Shown here piece by piece: positions 1,769 through 25,000 of a stretch of 34,293 bases of DNA. The notes under the pieces were generated by a model, which was given only the letters and a program-made list of their open reading frames with translations, ran no database searches and was not told the origin of the DNA. Origin of the DNA: Reclinomonas americana ATCC 50394 (Eukaryota); assembly GCA_048213135.1 (NCBI GenBank), contig PS015165.1, positions 22,970 through 57,262 of the forward strand, in the 5' to 3' direction. A program made the position numbers and the translations under genes. The first letter of the stretch is position 1. Each line of letters opens with the position of its first letter.

Positions 1769-5827
<4,059 letters not shown>

Positions 5828-6250: not shown

Positions 6251-7133
6251 CGAGTCTGCATTGACTGATATCTTGACAGAGTGAGTGGGTAAGAGTGTGA
6301 GTGTGAGTCTGAGTGTGTGTGTTTCTGTTTCTCACCGTATGAGACACGGTCCATGTGCAGCTTGTCAATCGCAACAACAGCACTCAAAAGAGTGGTGTGT
6401 TATATGAGCTGAATCGCGTGTTGGTAAGTGCCCCCCCTTCGTGCTCGTCTTCAGTGTCTCTCTCTCTTTATCTGATTATGTGCAGTGATTGCACAGTGTG
6501 AGACAAGAGAAGAGAGCGGGATGCACGCTCTTTCTGTGCGAGTGTGTGTTTCTTTGAGTTAATTGAGTGAGTGAAACGGCCGAATCGTGCTGACTCATCG
6601 CAATATTGCATTGGTTTGTCCAGGCCGGGAAAGTTGTAGTACGAGCTTGAATGCACATTTCTTGGCTGTGCACACACAATCGACAAAGAGCAACGAGTAG
6701 AACCACTGGCAACCGCAATTGTGTGTTGAGGGCTGTCAGATATAAATCGATTCATGTCCGGATTGGCGTTTTATCGAGTTGTGCATCGCCAGCAACTCAT
6801 TCGCCAACAGCATCAACACCACCCTTGTTGTCAGGGATATTGCCTCTTGCCCCGACACAGGCAAGCTGTTTCGAGCACTGCCTCATCTGAATAAACATTA
6901 CCCCTATGATTGCAAGCACAACAAAACGAGAGCAGACCTTGACATAGAGTCTGGAAAGAGATCAGCTGCGGGCCTCCAAAGTGGCGGCGCCGACACAAAC
7001 GAAAGAAGTCTCCCACCCGAACAAGCATTTCTCCAAGCCCGTCGACATGCACCACTACATTCTGGGCACATCGACGACATCGGGGGTCTCTAATAACACA
7101 GAAGCGCGTGCACACACATGCACACACAGAGAG

Positions 7134-8230
7134 TTAGCGATTCGGGCGCCACTCGTACGCCTTGTATGCATTGTAGCCGCCGGCCGCCACTCCGAGCACT
7201 GTAGATACGCATGGATCAGAATGAGAGAGGGAGAGGAACAGAGATGAGGATGAGGAGGATGAGGAGGGTGAGGAGGATGAGGAGGAGGAGAAAGAAGAGA
7301 AGAAGAAGGAGAGGAAGAACAAGAAGGACAAGAAAAAGAAGAAGAAAGAGGAAGAGGAAGAGAAAGAGGGGAGGAGAAGGAGGAGAAGGAGAAGGAGAAC
7401 AAGAAGAAGAACAAGAACAAGAACAAGAACAAGAAGAAGAAGAAGAAGAGATGGAGGAGGAGATCAAGGAGGAGGAGGATGAGGAGGAAGAGAACAAGAA
7501 GAAGAAGAAGAGGAGGAAGAAGAAGAAGGAAGAAGAAGAAGAAGAAGGAAGAGGAGGAGAGGAGGAGGAGGAGGAGAAGAAGAACAAGAACAAGAACAAG
7601 AACAAGGAGAAGATGAACAAGAAGACGAGCAAGAAGAGCAAGCAAGAACAAGGGGAGGAGCAGAAGAACAAGAACAGGAACAGGAAGGAGGAGGAGAAGA
7701 AGAAGAAGAAGAAGAATGGGAAGAAGAAGAAGGAGAAGAACGAGAAGAAGAAGAATGGGAAGAAGGAGAAGGAAAAGAAGAGCAAGAAGAAGAGCTGAGA
7801 CAGAGAAGAGTGACGCAACGAGTAAGAGGCAGCATCGCCCGTCGCCTCGCCACCGCTGCCACCAAGGCCACAGAGGCCACAGTGGCCGCAGAGTGTCCCT
7901 CAAAGTCCTTGCCATCCTTGATCAAGTAGCTGTGCGCACATCGGAGTCAGATAATGCAATGCACCTCATCTCTTGTCACACACTCACTCACTCACCCTGC
8001 AAGACCATACGCGCCACCAATCGCCAGTCCGCCAGCCAGAGAAGGCTTGCTGCCTTTGCGCACAAAACCCGCAATGCCACCAGCTGCAGTCTGCAGAAGA
8101 CAAAGAAGAGAGAGAGAGAGAGTGTGTGTATGTGCGTGTGTGTTAGCCCTCCCTGTCCTTCTCATGCTCAGGGCATGCACACATTCACACACACCAGCGC
8201 AGCCATAGTGAATGCCACATGTGAGCTCAT
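7134..8230 (-). CDS. TMEM14: TMEM14-family small membrane protein (4 exons)
   Basis: Spliced product: MSSHVAFTMAALTAAGGIAGFVRKGSKPSLAGGLAIGGAYGLAGYLIKDGKDFEGHSAATVASVALVAAVARRRAMLPLTLLGVAAGGYNAYKAYEWRPNR*. It carries the family motif GGxxGxxxxGSxxSL. The last intron (7199-7819) is (GAA/GGA)n-rich. Confidence 0.85.
7225..7800. repeat. (GAA/GAG)n low-complexity tract inside TMEM14 intron 3
   Basis: Triplet purine repeats; the ORFs across it are artefactual. Confidence 0.9.
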
Positions 8231-11200: not shown

Positions 11201-14200
11201 TCAGCTCGCTCCACTATCAGCAACCACTGCTGCATCGGCTGCCAATTCAGCAGCCTCCGCAGGCGGGGCGGCAAGGACTTCGTGCTCCACGGCAGCGGCC
11301 ACTTCTTCCTCAACAGCAGCGATCACTTCTTGCTCCACGGCAGCACCTACTTCTTGCTCAGCAGCAGCAACCACTTCTTGCTCCACGGCAACGGCAACCG
11401 CTTCTTGCTCCACAGCTGGTACCACTTCTTCCTCCACAGCAGCGATCGCTTCTTGCTCCACGGCAGCGGCAACAACTTGCTCCACGGCAGCACCTACTTC
11501 TTGTTCCACAGCTGGGACCACTTCGTGCTCCACGGCAGCGACGATATCACGACCGCCCTCATCATCATCCACGTCCTCCACGGCAATCTCCTCCGCAATC
11601 ACATCCTCCTCGGCGTCGCCATCACCGCTGACAGCGCGCTCGAGCTCAACCACCCCCACCGCTTCCGCCTCCGCCGCTCGCATCACGGCCGCCATGGCCA
11701 CAGCATCGACTGGCGGCGTGAATGCCGGCTCGATCTCCTCCTGTGCCAGGTCCTCCTCCACCTCGGCCAGTGTGGAGTTGTCGGTTCCGTTCTCGCTCGA
11801 GGCGACAGCGGCGGCGGCGGCAGCGAGTTGCGGCAACAGCGAACCCATGGCCGACGAGCCATCCCAGCTGATGGGCCACGACGACGGAAGCGCAGATCGC
11901 GGCGCCGCGTGATGCGACGAGGTGGCAGTCGTCGTTGTGGTGGTGCTGGTCGCAGTGGTGGCAGCAGTCGCGGCGGCAGTTGCCGCTGCAGCCATGGTGG
12001 CGGCGGCGGTCCGTGCTGCCGAGGTCGGCGAGAACGACATTACACTCCAGCTGTCCGACGAGTACGAATCAATGTCTTCCATGTCGTCGCCACCGGTGCT
12101 TCCACGTCGCGCGAGCGGTCGCGGTGGCAGGAGTGGTTGGAGACGGAGTGCACTCGGCGAGGCGTGTGGAGACCCAGTTGATCGTGTCGTTGTGGTCGTC
12201 GTGGTCGTTGTGCTGCTACCTCCGTTGCTGCTGGTCGTGGTGGTGGTGGTTGACGTGGTCGTGGGAGCGGTGGCGACAGCTGCCGAGGACACTCCAATCA
12301 CCGTCTCCAGAGTCTGGTGCGCCTCTGGTGCGGCTGCTGCGGCTGCCGATGGCTGCTGGTACAGCTCGTCAAAGTCGTCCGAGGTGGCGGCCGCAATATG
12401 CATGCGAGGAAGAAATGGCGGCAACCTGCGACGGCACAAAAGTCAGTCGACCGGCCAACATTGTCAGCACTTCTCCCCTTTAAGACGCACGCTGCCATGG
12501 ACGGACTGAGTGCCGCTGCTGCAGATCGCGGTGACTGACGCAGCGGTGGCGACGAGTGCTGCACAGGCTCCCAGCGGATACGCTGCTGCGGCCGCGGCGG
12601 TGGCTGCGCCTCCACCGAGGCTAGTGAAGGCCACGAATCGAGTGCCAGTGCGTCGGCCAGCAGTCGCTCTGCCGTGGAGCCACTGCCGCCGGCAGCGACT
12701 GGCGACGACAGCTGGCACTGCATCTTCAGTGCTTCGGAGGTCTGGCAGTGAGCGGCCATGCGGCAGCCAGGTGATCCTTCCAGGGTGTTGAAACAGCATG
12801 TCCACTGCGCGGGGCGACGGGTGAGACAGGAAGAGAAAGAACTGGGAGAGCGAGAGCGATCCACGCACGTGCTGCAGGGTGGCCGACAGAGGTAGAGAGG
12901 AAGCATGAAAAGAGAGCAGAGTTAGCAGGCATGTTGAGGCATCAGTTTCCAGAAAAGAGACACTCACCCCCTGCGACACACAAGCAGTCAGTCAGCCAGC
13001 ACGATGCGTGGATCACGAAGAGGAAAATCACAAACCATAACAAACTAATTCACGAGGAGGAAACACCAGCATTGCGATTAGTGAATGACAAACAACGGGG
13101 ACGAAAGAATGACGTGAACGCACATCCTGTGCAAAATAAAAAATCAGCATCCACACACCAGCTGCAGACGAACACAACACAACGAAACTCCAGAGTGGAA
13201 TCGGCAACCGTGTCGGTGATTCGCGCGCGCCGATGTCCACTTGCGACAGCGCAAGCACTGCCATTCCTGCCACAAATAAACTAGATTCAGCACACATATG
13301 TCGCAACGTTGCGCGCAAGGACATCGAATTAAGAAACCATGTCTGCTCCCGCCCCACCCCACGCCATGACGCGCGGCTGCAGTGACAGCAAACCATGTTG
13401 TGTGTGAGCAACACATGCACTCCTCTAACGCTTGGGTGCGCACGTACCGACGGGCCACTGGGCTCCTCACTGCTCTTGGCCACATGATGGTGGTGATGAT
13501 GGTGATGATGTACGTGGTGGTGATGCTGCTGCTGTCCGTCACCGGCAGGAGACGGCAGTGTCTGGTGCGTATCGGAGCCGGCGGCATGTAGCATCTCCCG
13601 CACGGCCCGCATGTCGTCCACCGACGCCCTCCGCAAATAAAAGTCCTCGGCGGTGGGCGTGGTTGCCGATTTGCCTGATGTGGGCGTCGTGGCCGCACAT
13701 CCCGTATTGCCGCCTACGCTAGCGACAGCAGCCGCTGCTGTCGCCTCCGCGCTGCTTCCACCGTCAGTCGTCTTGTTCATGACGGCGGCCACGTCAATAT
13801 TCAGCCTTGCCGGCGCCACCACTAACTCTTGCACAGCGCCCGGCAGAGAAAATAGCTGCGCAATGGGAGGCGGAGGTGGCGCAGAGGAAGAAGTCACAGT
13901 CGTCGTCGCGGTCGCGGGGTCGGTGGTTATCGCCAATGGTTTCCTGCAATCGTCGGTGGTGAGTAACCCCCACCAACTACTGCAACCATAACGTTGCTGA
14001 GTCAAGCGCAACGTCTTGTACCCGGCGGCTTTCGTGGAGGGCGTGCGCGTGTTGGCCAACTGCAACTGCTTCCGTTCCACGACGGCCAGTGCGCGCTCGT
14101 TTTGCACCGCTCGCTCGCGCATCAGCGACACGGTCTTTTCCAGTCGGTCCAGCCGTTGCACCACCTGATTGTCCATGGTGCTCAACGTGATGAGGAAGCG

Positions 14201-16238
14201 CTCCTCCATCATGTCGAAGCGTCGCATCACTTGATCGATGAAGCCCTCCATGGCCTTGTACGGACACTCACTCGCCACGTGGCTCTCCATGCGCGTGGCC
14301 GGGCTCTCGAACGTGCACCCGTAGATGCTCATCGGACAACTCATCTGCACGACTGTCAGCCAGGGTGGGGGGGGGGGGGGGGGACAACAGGATGGATGGA
14401 GAGGAAGGACACACCTTGCGCCCCGTGCACTCCCAGTCTCGATGATACCGCAGCGAGTTTCGTGGCACCTCCGAGCTGCACATCCCGCACGGAACGAGCG
14501 TGTTGGGGCACTCGATGCGCTGGTGTTCCTCCAACTGCACAAACACAAACGAGAGTGAAAGTCAATATCATGTCAACTTTATGACGACAATGACGATTGA
14601 CGCACCTTTTGTGCCACCACCGGAGCGCCACAACGGCAATACACCGGCCGAAAATCGCACTCGTTCATGTGCACCGACAAGAGCCGTGCCATCACCATCT
14701 GCTGGCATCCCGACGACCCGTACGGACAGTCCACTGTGCTCGGCGAAATCAATTGACCATTGACGAGCAAGGCATGAAGGAAGGAAGCGCACGCAACCCA
14801 GGCGGTATTCGCATTGTCGACGATGACTGTGCAGCGATTCCAGTGGACCACGCCACGGACAGCCCATGTGGCGACACTTGCAAGGTAAAGTGAAGATCTC
14901 TCGTTTGAGGTACACCACGGGAGGAGGGATGCTGTCAAAAGAGAAGAAGAGAGGAGGATGAGGAGTGGGAAAGGCAAGCAAACTGTCATGATGCAGGAGA
15001 GGAGAAGAGAGGACGACGATAGCGGTGGTGGTGGTAGTGGTGGTGGTGGAGGAGGAGGAGGAGGAGGAGGAGGAGGAGGAGGAGGAGGAGGAGGAGGAGG
15101 AGGAGCTGAGGTCGCAGCGAGAGTGAAGTACAAGTCTCTTTCTCTTGCTCATACGCAAGGCAGAAGATGAGGGTGGAGGATGACGAGGGTGGAGGAGGAT
15201 CAGGAGGAACTGACAGCTGTCTTGATCGCACAGTGAGTGCACGAAGGAGAATGCGTCTCTTTCTCTCTCACATACACACGCTGTGCGGAGACAAGAGAAG
15301 GGTGGAAGAGGGTGATGGAGGAGGTGGACGATGAGGAGGAGGAGGACGAGAAGCAGAGAGAGACTGAAGGAGCAGGCAGTTGTCGTTTCGCACAATGAGT
15401 GCACGAAGGATAAGGCGTCTCTTTCTCTCTCACATACACACGCGGTACGGAGACAAGAGTGGTGGAAGAGGGTGGAGGAGGAGGAGGGACAGAAGGAGAA
15501 GCAGAGAGGAGGGCGGTGGAGGAGGAGGAGGAACACAAGGAACACGGAGCTGTCTCGATCGCACAGTGAGTGCACGAAGAGCAAGGCGTCTCTTTCTCTC
15601 TACATACACACGCGGTGCGGAGACAAGAGGAGGGTGGAGGAGGGTGGTGGTGGTGGTGGCAGAGGAGGAGAAGGAAGAACAAGAGACAGGCAGTTGTCAT
15701 GATCGCACAGTCTCTCACACACAAACGTACAGAGAGAGAGAGAGAGAGAAGTCTTGTCCTACGTGCAGCGCGTACTCTTCCTGTTTCTATGTCCCTCCTC
15801 CGCCACCCTCCTCCTCTCTTCTCCGTTGTGTGTGTGTGTGTGTGTTCTCATTCACTCTCTCTTCATCTCCTCTTTCCCCTTTCTCTCCCTCTCTCTCTCC
15901 CTCGCTCTCTTCCTCTTCACCTCCTTCCCTCCCTCCCTCTCCCTCCCTTCTCCCTCTCCCACTCACCGCGTCAATGCACCACACCCACACGGATTGAGAT
16001 GATTCGCCAACACCGTCTCCACACACAGTCGACACAACACATGCGTCAGGGTCTCACACAGTGCCGGTTCATCGCAGGGCACTCCAGTGCAAATCACACA
16101 GCGGAGGCGGTCGACGCGCTCCAACAAGGCCGCGTTCTTTGCAGAGGAAGAGGAGGCAGAGGAGGAGCTGTCCGCGGCATCCTCTGCGGCGGGGTTGTCC
16201 TCCAGGGCCAGCCAGAGGTATTCCTCATCAAAGCACAT
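11201..16238 (-). CDS. RING finger + TRAF-type zinc fingers + coiled coil + Btk-type zinc finger + acidic Ala/Val/Glu repeat tail (putative E3 ligase; about 14 exons including microexons)
   Basis: RING: CVIC..C.ETLTH.LCRLC..PCGC. TRAF-type fingers: CKCRHMGCPW..HRRQCEYRL|VDCPY..HMNECDFRPVYC and HQRIECPNTLVPCGMC..HRDWEC. A coiled coil follows, then WQCLRC..CRFHSG|D|FVM|G|H|WTCC..PGCRMAAH. A phase-2 junction leads into the acidic ORF ending at 11201. Confidence 0.75.
11270..11545 (-). repeat. Coding tandem repeat, about 11 copies of a ~24-nt unit (AVEQEVxA)
   Basis: AVEHEVVP AVEQEVGA AVEQVVAA AVEQEAIA AVEEEVVP ... AVEHEVLA. Confidence 0.9.
15215..15720. repeat. Intronic minisatellite, three full copies plus one partial, period about 165 bp
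   Basis: Core gcacagtgagtgcacgaag..gcgtctctttctctct..acatacacacgc recurs near 15228, 15390 and 15561. Confidence 0.85.
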
Positions 16239-16601
16239 GAGGAGAGGCCTCGTGTGTGCGTCGTGGAGGGAGTTGTGACAACAATAGTTAAGTTCGAAGT
16301 TTGTCAACCGGACAAGGGTGGAGTTGTCATGACCTCAGTGGATCACATTAAAGTGCAACATATGCGACGCGCTGTGGGCGAAGCGTAGTCGCCGTCGATG
16401 GGAGCATTGGAGAAGATGTTCGTTGCAAGTGAACAGGCGTTATCAATCGCGACGTCGGCTGCACATTGAACGGGGTGGTGATGGACGCCTGTGCCACGTG
16501 CCGAGTTGAGATCGACATTTTACAGGAGGCAGAGCCCGATTGGAACAGCGTCGCGATCGGTACACTGGGTGCTGCAATCAGGCACCAAACAACAGCAGTG
16601 C

Positions 16602-22000: not shown

Positions 22001-25000
22001 TCCCCTTCTCTCTCTCACTCTCTTTCCCCTTTCTCTCACTCTCTTTCCACTTCTCACTCTCTTTCCCTTTCTCTCACTCTCTATCCTCTTTCTTCTCTCT
22101 CTCCTTCTCTCTCCTCCTCTCTCTCTCTCTCCCTTCTCTCCATCACACTCACCAGCGCCTGACCACCGCGCACACGGGCAATCTTCTCCGTAAACTCCCT
22201 CTCTAGCCGCTCTTGATCGGCACGCAGCTCGGCCTCCTTCTTCCTGCGATCGGCGTCAAAGGCGCGCGCCAGCTCGGCCTTGGTGCGCTCCACCTCCTGG
22301 CGCACTTCCTCTGGGTCCTTGTAGCCCTGGGACTTGAGCAGCTCCTGATAATGGCGATTCGCGAGTGAGCAGCAGCTGCAGTAGGAGCGAGAAAGCGAGG
22401 GCGGCATCTCAAACGCACCGTGTACGCAAACTGGAAGGTGACATTTGGATCGGGCGGGCCAGCACGCGGATCAATAAAGTGATAACAGAAGCTTGAACCG
22501 ATCCAGATGCGAGATCCCTGCGAGACAAACAAGTCAGTGCGGGCTGTATATGATCTGCAAACAAAAACACAAAAACCACTCACATGGCGCAGTACAGTCG
22601 GCTCGGTGATTTCCTTGCCGTTCACGTGCGTCTTGTAACGCTCGCGATCCGAGGCCAGCGGTGTGAGCGTGACACGGCCGTTCACATTCTCGAAGCGGCA
22701 GTGGATCGGCGCAACCTCTTGTCCGTCAAACACCACGTCGGCGTGCGATTGCTGAACCGAGAAACAAAGAAAAAATGAGAAAATGGGGCGAGGCGGGGAG
22801 TGGAATCAAGGTGCAAGGACGTTACCCCTTCAGTGGCGGGATCCATGGAGCCAATGGTGAACGACCTGCCAATGGGAATACCGTGCACCAGACGACCGGC
22901 CATGAATGGGTCCTCCGACAGATTCGAGATGCGCGGCGTGTCGTCGGCAATGTCCTCTGCGGCGATACCAAGCTCCTGCGGTGACATGGAGAGTGAGACA
23001 CGGCGGTGAAGACGGTGAGAGGTGAATGTTGCGCAACTCTCATGTAGCGGTGGCGGGCATCGCGCATCACATGCGCGTCGTTGACACGCTCCTCGTACGA
23101 CTTTTGCATCTCCTCAATGACCTTCAGCTTCTCCTCGAGCTCATTCTGCAGCTCGTCGATGCGAGCCTGCGTCAGAGCCTCGCGTTGCTCTGTGCACAAG
23201 CGGTGGTGAGTGCATGTGGAGAGGGAGAAGAATCGTGTTGGCGGAAACGCAACGGAGCTCTGCCTGCAGCGCCATGACACGGTTGCGAGACTCTGCGAGG
23301 GTGGACGGAAAGTGAGAGAGATGATCATCACACACAATGACTACTGTTACAGACAGACCCTCCTCAAGTCGGCCGCGATCAGCGGACGTGTGCACAGCCT
23401 TTTGCGCATTGACCTTGACGCGAGACACACTCTTGGCGAACCTGCGCGCGCACACAAAGGCATCAGCAATGGCGCGCAAGAGCAGTGAAGGTGAAAGGCG
23501 AGAACGCAACTCCAAGGTCGACACGGATTCCTCATAGTTGAGCGCCGACGGAGAAATGGCGGCAATCATGACGGTCTTGCTGTTGAGACCGAGCGACTCT
23601 TGCAACACCCTGCATGCGGGATCAGCAACGAAATGATGGCCCAAGTGCCTTGGTCAAAAAAAACGCAACTCAGTGAGGCGCGAGTCACGGTAGGCCGGCT
23701 TCTGACCATCGGCCAAGGCACGAATGACACGACCGAGGGTCAGCAGCGACAGGTTGATCTTGGCACCTTGCTGTGTAGTGGGTAGAGGAGAGAGTGGTGA
23801 GAAACAAGGAGAGGAATGTGGTTTGGCCGAGATGATCACGAAACGGCGCGAGTGACTCCCTCGGTTTCGGCCTTGCTGATGCGCTCCGACCCGGCCAAAT
23901 CGACAAGGTTGATTTTCGGGGCCAGGGTTTGGCTCGTCCGCAGGTCGGTCTGCCAGAGGGCAAAGGGGGTGAGCATGGAAAGGGGGAGGAGAAAGGGAAG
24001 GGGGAAGAGAAGGGGGAAGGGAAGGGGAAAGCGAAGAGGACGAAAGGGAAGGGCGAAAGGGAAGGGGAAAGGTGAAGGGGAAAGGTGAAGGGAGATGTAA
24101 AAGGGAAAGCGAAGAGGGCGAAAGGGTGAAGGGGGAAGAGAAGAGGAAAGGTAAAGTGGAAAGGGCGACGAGAACGAAAGGGTGACGGGGAAGAGAAGTG
24201 GAAAGGTAAAGGGAATGAGCGACGGGGAAAGCGACGAGGACGAAAGGTTGAAGGGGGGAGAAGCGGCAAGGCAAACGGGAAGGAAGCGAAGAAAAGGAAA
24301 GGGTGAAGGAGTAAAAGCAGGGGAAGAGTGAAGGGTAAAATGACGAAAAGCATGTCGTGTTAAGACGGTGAGAGAGAAGAGGTAGAGAAAGCAGGTAGCT
24401 GGCCTATTTTCCCAATCAACAGCCACCGTGACGAAGCAGGAGATAAGCAAGAGTCAGAAGGGTAGAGGAATAGCTGGGCGGAGAGATGAATGGAGCAGAT
24501 CACCTGCCACAACCAACAGCAAAAAAAGAGCAAGGGGGATCAACTCTACTCACATGGCGAAGAAAAGAAAATCAACACATTCAAAGGAGAGACAAGGAAA
24601 GAAAGAAATGTAGACGGAGGAAGATTGCATGGAGCAACCACAGCAGTGACAGGGAGGTAACAGAAAAACGAATCACGAGATCACACGCCCTCTCTCCCTT
24701 CTCCCCACCAACAGACCTTTCGGAAGTGCACAGTCATAACAGTGTGCGCGCGACTGGATTGGTCATTGAGCGCCGTCTTCTCAATGATGCGCATGCGGAG
24801 GGCGGCCTCCAGATTCTCCATGATCTCGTCGAATGACTTGACGAGAACGCTGTCAAGGCATGAGGCACGATGAGCACAAGAGGGAGACTATTGCAAGAGG
24901 AACGCTCGCTCACGCAACTGATTGGCACCGTGAATGTAGACGCCCTTGAGGCGGTCCTTGACCACGCGGAGCTTCTTGGAGTCGCGCTCCGCCTCGCTGG

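Follow-up and report, generated by a model that had tools for sequence, protein, structure and literature searches.

Does the interval of 384 nucleotides (nt) that separates the two halves of a putative zinc-binding module in Reclinomonas americana represent a single intron, or a run of very short introns separated by exons of one to three codons? The locus lies on the minus strand of a window of 34,293 nt (the whole stretch of DNA that was analysed, i.e. positions 22,970 to 57,262 of contig PS015165.1 in assembly GCA_048213135.1 of strain ATCC 50394), and all positions below are those of the window. The 384 nt (13188-12805, minus strand) are found between an exon encoding ..CRFHSG, which ends at 13189, and an exon encoding WTCC.., which starts at 12804. 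We consider it likely that this interval comprises five genuine introns and four genuine microexons, all of the latter being included in the messenger RNA (mRNA). The mature mRNA would then encode a compact two-zinc module, located C-terminally in a protein that also has TRAF/Sina-type zinc fingers and a stretch resembling a coiled coil.

Organization of the proposed microexon chain

The 384 nt are tiled completely by five units of the GT..AG type, with lengths of 62, 79, 65, 96 and 64 nt, and the gaps between these units are GAT, TTTGTTATG, GGG and CAC. Each of the four gaps has a length divisible by three and is free of stop codons, and together they add six codons. The upstream exon has the 3' end ..TGC CGA TTC CAC TCT GGA at 13189, in phase 0, and the downstream exon opens with TGG ACA TGC TGT at 12804. 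The same layout of exons, five GT-AG units and four microexons had been given in a preliminary description of the locus, and was matched both by reading of the minus strand and by extraction of the coordinates. The branch-like sites listed in that description are likewise present in all five units (CTGAT, CTAAT, CTGAC, CTAAC and TCTCAC, respectively).

Read along the minus strand, unit 1 (13188-13127, 62 nt, GTTTCG..GCACAG) carries CTGAT 17 nt before its end, and its donor hexamer GTTTCG is also found in one of the reference introns of a kinesin gene described below (intron K5). It would be followed by microexon 1, GAT (13126-13124), which encodes Asp and is present in all four in-frame tilings that are possible. 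Unit 2 (13123-13045, 79 nt, GTGCGT..AATTAG) has CTAAT at 33 nt before its end. Microexon 2, TTTGTTATG (13044-13036, 9 nt), would encode Phe-Val-Met; the alternative at this position is TTT alone, with a donor GTTATG at 13041. Unit 3 (13035-12971, 65 nt, GTTTGT..TCGCAG) has CTGAC at both 21 and 17 nt before its end; its donor fits the class GTNNGT and is absent among the reference hexamers. Microexon 3, GGG (12970-12968), would encode Gly and has GGGGTGAGT, with donor GTCTCT, as its alternative. Unit 4 (12967-12872, 96 nt, GTGAGT..CTGCAG), with CTAAC at 50 nt before its end, shares its donor GTGAGT with reference intron K10, and leads to microexon 4, CAC (12871-12869), which would encode His and again occurs in all four tilings. 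In unit 5 (12868-12805, 64 nt, GTGCGT..GCGCAG) the sequence TCTCAC was found near the end by reading, and the donor hexamer GTGCGT is also that of reference introns b, f and K11. As expected of coding microexons, each of the four lies between two predicted introns whose splice signals are those of the organism, and keeps the reading frame.

A pyrimidine-rich near-repeat of 14 nt (93% identity) flanks the 9-nt microexon, with one copy at the 3' end of unit 2 (13050-13063) and the other in the 5' part of unit 3 (13013-13026), both on the minus strand. It may be the trace of a small local duplication, or may be due to chance (E-value of about 0.02 in a tiny search space).

Comparison with other introns of the organism

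As a reference, 16 introns outside the chain were placed by frame continuity in the same gene, in a kinesin-3-like gene and in a WD-repeat gene. The exon ends in the kinesin gene are backed by continuous coordinates in the Pfam Kinesin profile over six exons (24-106, 107-166, 170-211, 221-246, 252-285 and 287-318). A harvest of introns based on T-richness and frame joining proved too noisy for counts; it was used only to choose two more introns, which were then checked by translation. Fifteen of the 16 reference introns have a length of 60-77 nt (median 69 nt), and the remaining one (K4) is a CT-rich, low-complexity intron of 767 nt; a further intron of about 1 kilobase (kb) is found in the kinesin gene.

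The most common reference donor is GTTGCG (six of 16; minus-strand donors at 14797, 24918, 23669, 23510, 23253 and 2395), followed by GTGCGT (three) and GTCTGT (two), with GTGTGT, GTACGT, GTTTCG, GTTTCT and GTGAGT occurring once each. A donor of the classical GTAAGT/GTGAGT type is present in one reference intron out of 16. The local donors resemble a consensus GTGCGT in which one additional T is optional; among eukaryotes, this is unusual. Acceptors are CAG in 14 and TAG in two of the 16 introns, and the T fraction is 0.24-0.42 in the reference introns, 0.18 in exons and 0.30-0.47 in the chain units.

Three chain units (62, 64 and 65 nt) fall inside the reference range of 60-77 nt, and the other two (79 and 96 nt) exceed it. 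Four of the five chain donors are hexamers that also occur in independent reference introns, as determined by a check for exact hexamers. Units 4 (96 nt) and 2 (79 nt, with a TAG acceptor) are the least typical of the chain. Overall, a fit of the five units to the organism's own short introns is supported in length, donor type, acceptor and T-richness.

In the model that we favour, five short spliceosomal introns would flank four exons in phase 0 that encode Asp, Phe-Val-Met, Gly and His. Introns as short as 60-77 nt would fit splicing by intron definition, and recognition probably takes place across each intron of the chain, which has the organism's usual size. As a 3-nt exon would leave no room for factors at both of its splice sites, neighbouring introns are probably removed successively.

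Rarity of the chain

The whole window was scanned for intron-like segments, defined by a donor GTNNGT or GTTNCGT, an acceptor YAG, a length of 55-100 nt and a branch-like YT[GAC]AY at 8-45 nt before the end. This yielded 193 segments (minus strand, 123; plus strand, 70). A chain of at least three segments (with gaps of at most 12 nt) occurs just once on the two strands of the window, and it is the one described here, with five links; the 384 nt contain six intron-like segments, five of which tile end to end. Of 5000 dinucleotide-shuffled versions of the 384 nt, 2660 had a longest chain of 0 segments, 2281 of 1, 57 of 2 and two of 3, and the corresponding numbers for 5000 Markov-1 sequences with intron composition were 2342, 2549, 106 and three. 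No chain of four or more was found in either set of 5000 sequences. The real 767-nt intron K4 gave a longest chain of 1 under the same rule.

When the rule was loosened as far as possible (any GT..AG of 45-120 nt, with in-frame, stop-free gaps of at most 12 nt), just four complete tilings of the real sequence were obtained, each with five introns, adding 12, 18, 18 or 24 nt. Among 3000 shuffles treated in this way, 78 could be tiled at all, and 17 with a total of 18 nt. The second of the 18-nt tilings of the real sequence consists of GAT, TTT, GGGGTGAGT and CAC, and its donors GTTATG and GTCTCT are outside the local donor class. Of the two, only the path of the preliminary description has donors that belong to the local class together with a Gly located two residues before Trp.

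The choice of splice sites in the region is also limited. There are 38 GT dinucleotides, six of which carry a reference donor hexamer, and four of these six are proposed donors. Of only eight AG dinucleotides in the 384 nt, five are the proposed acceptors, two are situated 27 nt after a donor, and one is part of the GTGAGT donor itself. The pattern is more than can be attributed to chance, and the statistics of the sequence speak strongly for the proposed chain.

A putative CHORD-type zinc module with Btk-motif spacing

The exon at 13266-13189 by itself encodes C-x2-C-x13-C-x2-H-x-G, and the exon from 12804 by itself encodes W-x-CC-x9-C-x4-H; both patterns are contiguous and independent of any splicing assumption. 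With all four microexons included, the combined pattern reads C-x2-C-x13-C-x2-H-x10-CC-x9-C-x4-H. With all of them skipped, the distance from His to CysCys is four residues, compared with 10 in the Btk motif and 14 in Rar1 CHORD-II.

The Btk motif is a single-zinc module with the ligands His143 and Cys154, Cys155 and Cys165, which corresponds to H-x10-CC-x9-C (PMC3836457). The model with all four microexons reproduces this His-x10-Cys-Cys-x9-Cys spacing, whereas the fully skipped form has four residues in place of the ten. The second half of the module also matches the Pfam profile BTK (PF00779), as the downstream exon alone aligns over its residues 1-17 with profile positions 12-28 of 30 (15.1 bits, E-value 0.023). 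Since this match starts at profile position 12, 11 profile positions are missing before the first residue of the downstream exon. An Atlas look-up, used as a lead only, pointed to a 38-amino-acid cluster with BTK in 13% of its members (score 0.89). The Btk motif normally follows directly after a PH domain, but no PH match was obtained for the upstream open frames and exons in Pfam scans of single exons. The module described here further differs from the Btk motif by the addition of C-x2-C-x13-C before the shared part and of a His four residues after the last Cys. These four extra ligands point to a putative second zinc site that is absent from the Btk motif.

In Rar1 CHORD-II, the two zinc sites are formed by His181 with Cys196, Cys197 and Cys213, and by Cys159, Cys164 and Cys178 with His218, in the pattern C-x4-C-x13-C-x2-H-x14-CC-x15-C-x4-H (PMC2935968). 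The eight-ligand order C-C-C-H-C-C-C-H of CHORD (PF04968) is present in the spliced model, as seen from a comparison of spacing only. As in the CHORD proteins (Rar1, Chp1 and melusin), the last His would return to the first site, and the x13, x2 and x4 loops are the same as those described for Rar1 CHORD-II, whereas three loops are shorter here (x2 instead of x4, x10 instead of x14, and x9 instead of x15). CHORDs are described as occurring in a tandem pair and in association with a CS domain or Sgt1 (PMC2935968). The present gene showed a single module of this kind, single-exon Pfam scans gave no CS match, and the host protein, in contrast to the CHORD proteins, is of the TRAF/Sina zinc finger type. 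A sequence search of the Protein Data Bank with the finger exons gave no match for one of them and one chance match (E-value 8.4) for the other.

The full pattern would represent a CHORD-type two-zinc module with the spacing of the Btk motif in its second half. The preliminary description had called it a Btk-motif zinc finger, a label that holds in part: it agrees with the H-x10-CC-x9-C spacing, but not with a BTK score below the cut-off, the lack of a PH match or an eight-ligand pattern of the CHORD type. Its statement that only inclusion of all four microexons produces the Btk spacing was too strong, as two of the four in-frame tilings add 18 nt. In our view, the most likely role of the two-zinc module is that of a structural module for protein interaction, with both zinc binding and function predicted from the ligand pattern. 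Such a domain would form a link, in shortened form, between the Btk motif and the CHORD fold.

Weighing of alternative explanations

Several points weigh against the proposed chain of five introns and four microexons. We infer the splicing of the microexons from genomic sequence alone, the reference introns were themselves deduced from continuity of frame and profile, and the donor rule of the scan (GTNNGT or GTTNCGT) was written after both the reference and the chain donors had been seen. Unit 2 is the weakest unit, as it ends in TAG and has its sole strict branch-like site, CTAAT, as far as 33 nt before its end, and unit 4, with 96 nt and its CTAAC at 50 nt before the end, is beyond the range of 60-77 nt. 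One intron of 384 nt that skips all four microexons would also be in frame, and introns of 767 nt and about 1 kb do occur in this organism. On the protein side, the BTK score of 15.1 bits is below the gathering cut-off of 24, and neither finger exon, scored separately, matches the Pfam CHORD profile at E-values up to 10. In addition, no orthologue or related locus that could show conservation of the microexons was found. A query with the TRAF region against longer proteins gave no matches from 24 candidates, an exhaustive phmmer search with the downstream exon of 101 amino acids gave none among 1.84 billion representatives, and scans of metagenome contigs with an exon of 95 amino acids and with that of 101 amino acids produced 213 and 588 pattern matches, respectively, none of which was confirmed.

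A single 384-nt intron would yield an mRNA that joins ..CACTCTGGA to TGGACATGC (i.e. ..HSG to WTCC..), with the inner splice sites as unused decoys. The outermost pair (13188/12805) is indeed of the GT..AG type and in phase 0, and long introns do exist in this organism, as mentioned above (767 nt, and about 1 kb in the kinesin gene). We nevertheless regard this explanation as quite unlikely, as it leaves a His-to-CysCys distance of 4, against 10 in Btk and 14 in CHORD, and as the exact tiling by five units with in-frame gaps was seen neither in 5000 + 5000 simulations nor in the 767-nt intron, which moreover is by reading a CT-rich, low-complexity sequence, whereas the chain units are free of such repeats. 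It is unlikely, too, that the chain is spliced in another way, be it through a different tiling (TTT for the 9-nt exon and/or GGGGTGAGT for GGG) or through partial inclusion of the microexons. The existence of four in-frame tilings (12, 18, 18 and 24 nt) would allow this, and it is the 9-nt exon that has the weakest flanks, with a TAG acceptor, a GTTTGT donor outside the reference hexamers, and the 14-nt near-repeat (93% identity) on either side. However, TAG acceptors are used elsewhere (two of 16 reference introns), the donors GTTATG and GTCTCT fall outside the donor class to which GTTTGT and GTGAGT belong, and only the tiling of the preliminary description gives x10 together with a Gly two residues before Trp-x-Cys-Cys.

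Combinatorial tuning of the finger by skipping, as suggested in the preliminary description, found no support. Regulated skipping of the phase-0 microexons, with up to sixteen in-frame His-to-CysCys loops of 4 to 10 residues as its outcome, appears very unlikely to us; were it to take place, splicing would turn the second zinc site on or off, or shift it from one shape to another. At least as improbable, in our view, is that unit 1 is retained and the protein ends at the TGA near 13144, or that the locus is a decaying pseudogene in which the WTCC.. exon is not joined at all. The read-through from 13188 to 13144 (minus strand) does offer 14 open codons that include two adjacent Cys residues and two others, but T makes up 47% of this stretch, compared with 18% of exon sequence, no Pfam match was obtained for it, and the Cys residues are probably a by-product of the TG-rich tract from which their codons derive. 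The BTK match, by contrast, is located on the downstream exon, which continues to a canonical 65-nt intron and a long open frame.

Some other candidate explanations were rejected. An origin by tandem duplication or from introners was discarded, as the units show no significant similarity among themselves or to any other part of the window, with a best match of 14 nt at 93%. For an embedded RNA gene, e.g. a small nucleolar RNA, no Rfam match at gathering score was found in the window, the one match being at chance level (E-value 0.87) and on the opposite strand. A plus-strand open frame of 169 amino acids (12775-13284), which could have indicated an antisense gene, has no Pfam match. Recursive splicing with zero-length exons was rejected because, by reading, none of the gaps is zero and no microexon starts with GT.

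The host gene and its neighbourhood

The first half of the zinc module is encoded by the exon at 13266-13189 (minus strand, as are all elements of this gene given here), which is in phase 0 at both ends and is preceded by the acceptor ..TGGCAG at 13267 (intron e2). The 181 nt upstream of this exon (13447-13267) are best read as an intron of 71 nt (13447-13377), a phase-0 exon of 39 nt (13376-13338) and a second intron of 71 nt (13337-13267). The reading frame would also survive skipping of this 39-nt candidate exon, which is followed by a weak donor, GTTTCT, in the second intron. The exon at 12804-12491 encodes the second half of the module, followed by low-complexity sequence, and ends at the donor GTGCGT (12490) of intron f. 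This canonical intron of 65 nt (12490-12426) leads to an open frame of 413 codons, which indicates that the gene continues.

In the other direction, TRAF/Sina-type zinc finger exons of the same gene (14933-14345) are interrupted by introns a, b and c, of 64, 71 and 70 nt. In Pfam scans of single exons, Sina_ZnF (22.8 and 25.3 bits) and zf-TRAF (18.2 and 19.9 bits) were matched below threshold. After these exons come a stretch resembling a coiled coil and low-complexity sequence. Upstream of them, repeated units of about 170 nt are found, as well as an open frame with a RING-like cysteine pattern (15963-16334, minus strand), which has no Pfam match at E-values up to 1. This frame might join the same gene, which would then have a layout of RING plus TRAF zinc finger.

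Elsewhere in the window, the kinesin-3-like gene (about 27000-19400, minus strand) has its motor domain on six exons, and an FHA domain was matched with 30.5 bits. It carries many introns of 60-77 nt besides the CT-rich 767-nt intron and that of about 1 kb. Database matches to a conserved kinesin exon reach no more than 57% identity, which suggests an unsampled lineage. The window belongs to a draft eukaryotic assembly with about 57% G+C, and is broken by seven runs of N of 20-714 nt. Low-complexity or tandem sequence is found at 15200-15850 (minus strand), 4500-5300, 7000-7900 and 23950-24400, and includes CT, CA and GA dinucleotide runs and a repeated ACGT-type unit beside the runs of N.

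Comparison with known microexon systems

Extremely short exons have been described in plants, with 1-nt exons in APC11 and VPS55 and adjacent exons of 5 nt and 12 nt in a rice gene that were validated by reverse transcription PCR (PMC8831610), and in fungi, with a 1-nt exon in CYP621A of Fusarium (PMC12940212). The candidate chain shares with the cases in these reports that internal coding exons of far less than 15 nt lie between canonical introns, are missed by annotation, and restore a conserved protein. The plant and fungal cases cited here have RNA proof and consist of at most two such exons in a row, although the supplement of PMC8831610 may list longer runs. Here, in contrast, four microexons would follow each other, three of them single codons between introns of minimal length, as predicted from the genomic sequence only.

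Neighbouring, alternatively spliced microexons of 3, 18 and 22 base pairs (bp) are known from the human RPS24 gene (PMC12207440). As far as described there, that run and the present one have in common that they include an exon of 3 nt. In RPS24, an animal gene spliced by exon definition, the microexons occupy the 3' end of its coding sequence, whereas the run described here would lie inside a structured domain and between introns of 62-96 nt.

Runs of symmetric exons of 3-81 bp are the hallmark of the micro-exon genes (MEGs) of Schistosoma (bioRxiv 10.1101/2023.06.21.545858), and these provide the known precedent for the idea of combinatorial variation. In the MEGs, introns are long (up to 5 kb), the products are secreted, and microexons make up most of the length, whereas in the present gene only 18 nt would be in microexons, the introns of the chain are 62-96 nt, and other exons range from 39 to more than 300 nt. 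The gene is thus not a micro-exon gene of the schistosome type, and a metal-binding module, unlike the MEG products, should not tolerate variation.

In searches of open-access text for consecutive or single-codon microexons, no run of four with three single codons was found. In genomes with such runs, the central part of a metal-binding domain could be missed by gene finders. If the chain is real, it would test how the spliceosome handles 3' and 5' splice sites that are three bases apart, repeatedly and under intron definition. Tiny and adjacent microexons are already known from the systems above, and the novelty is the extreme form of the run: if transcripts confirm it, few runs described so far would pack minimal exons as densely as these three single-codon exons and one three-codon exon within 384 nt.

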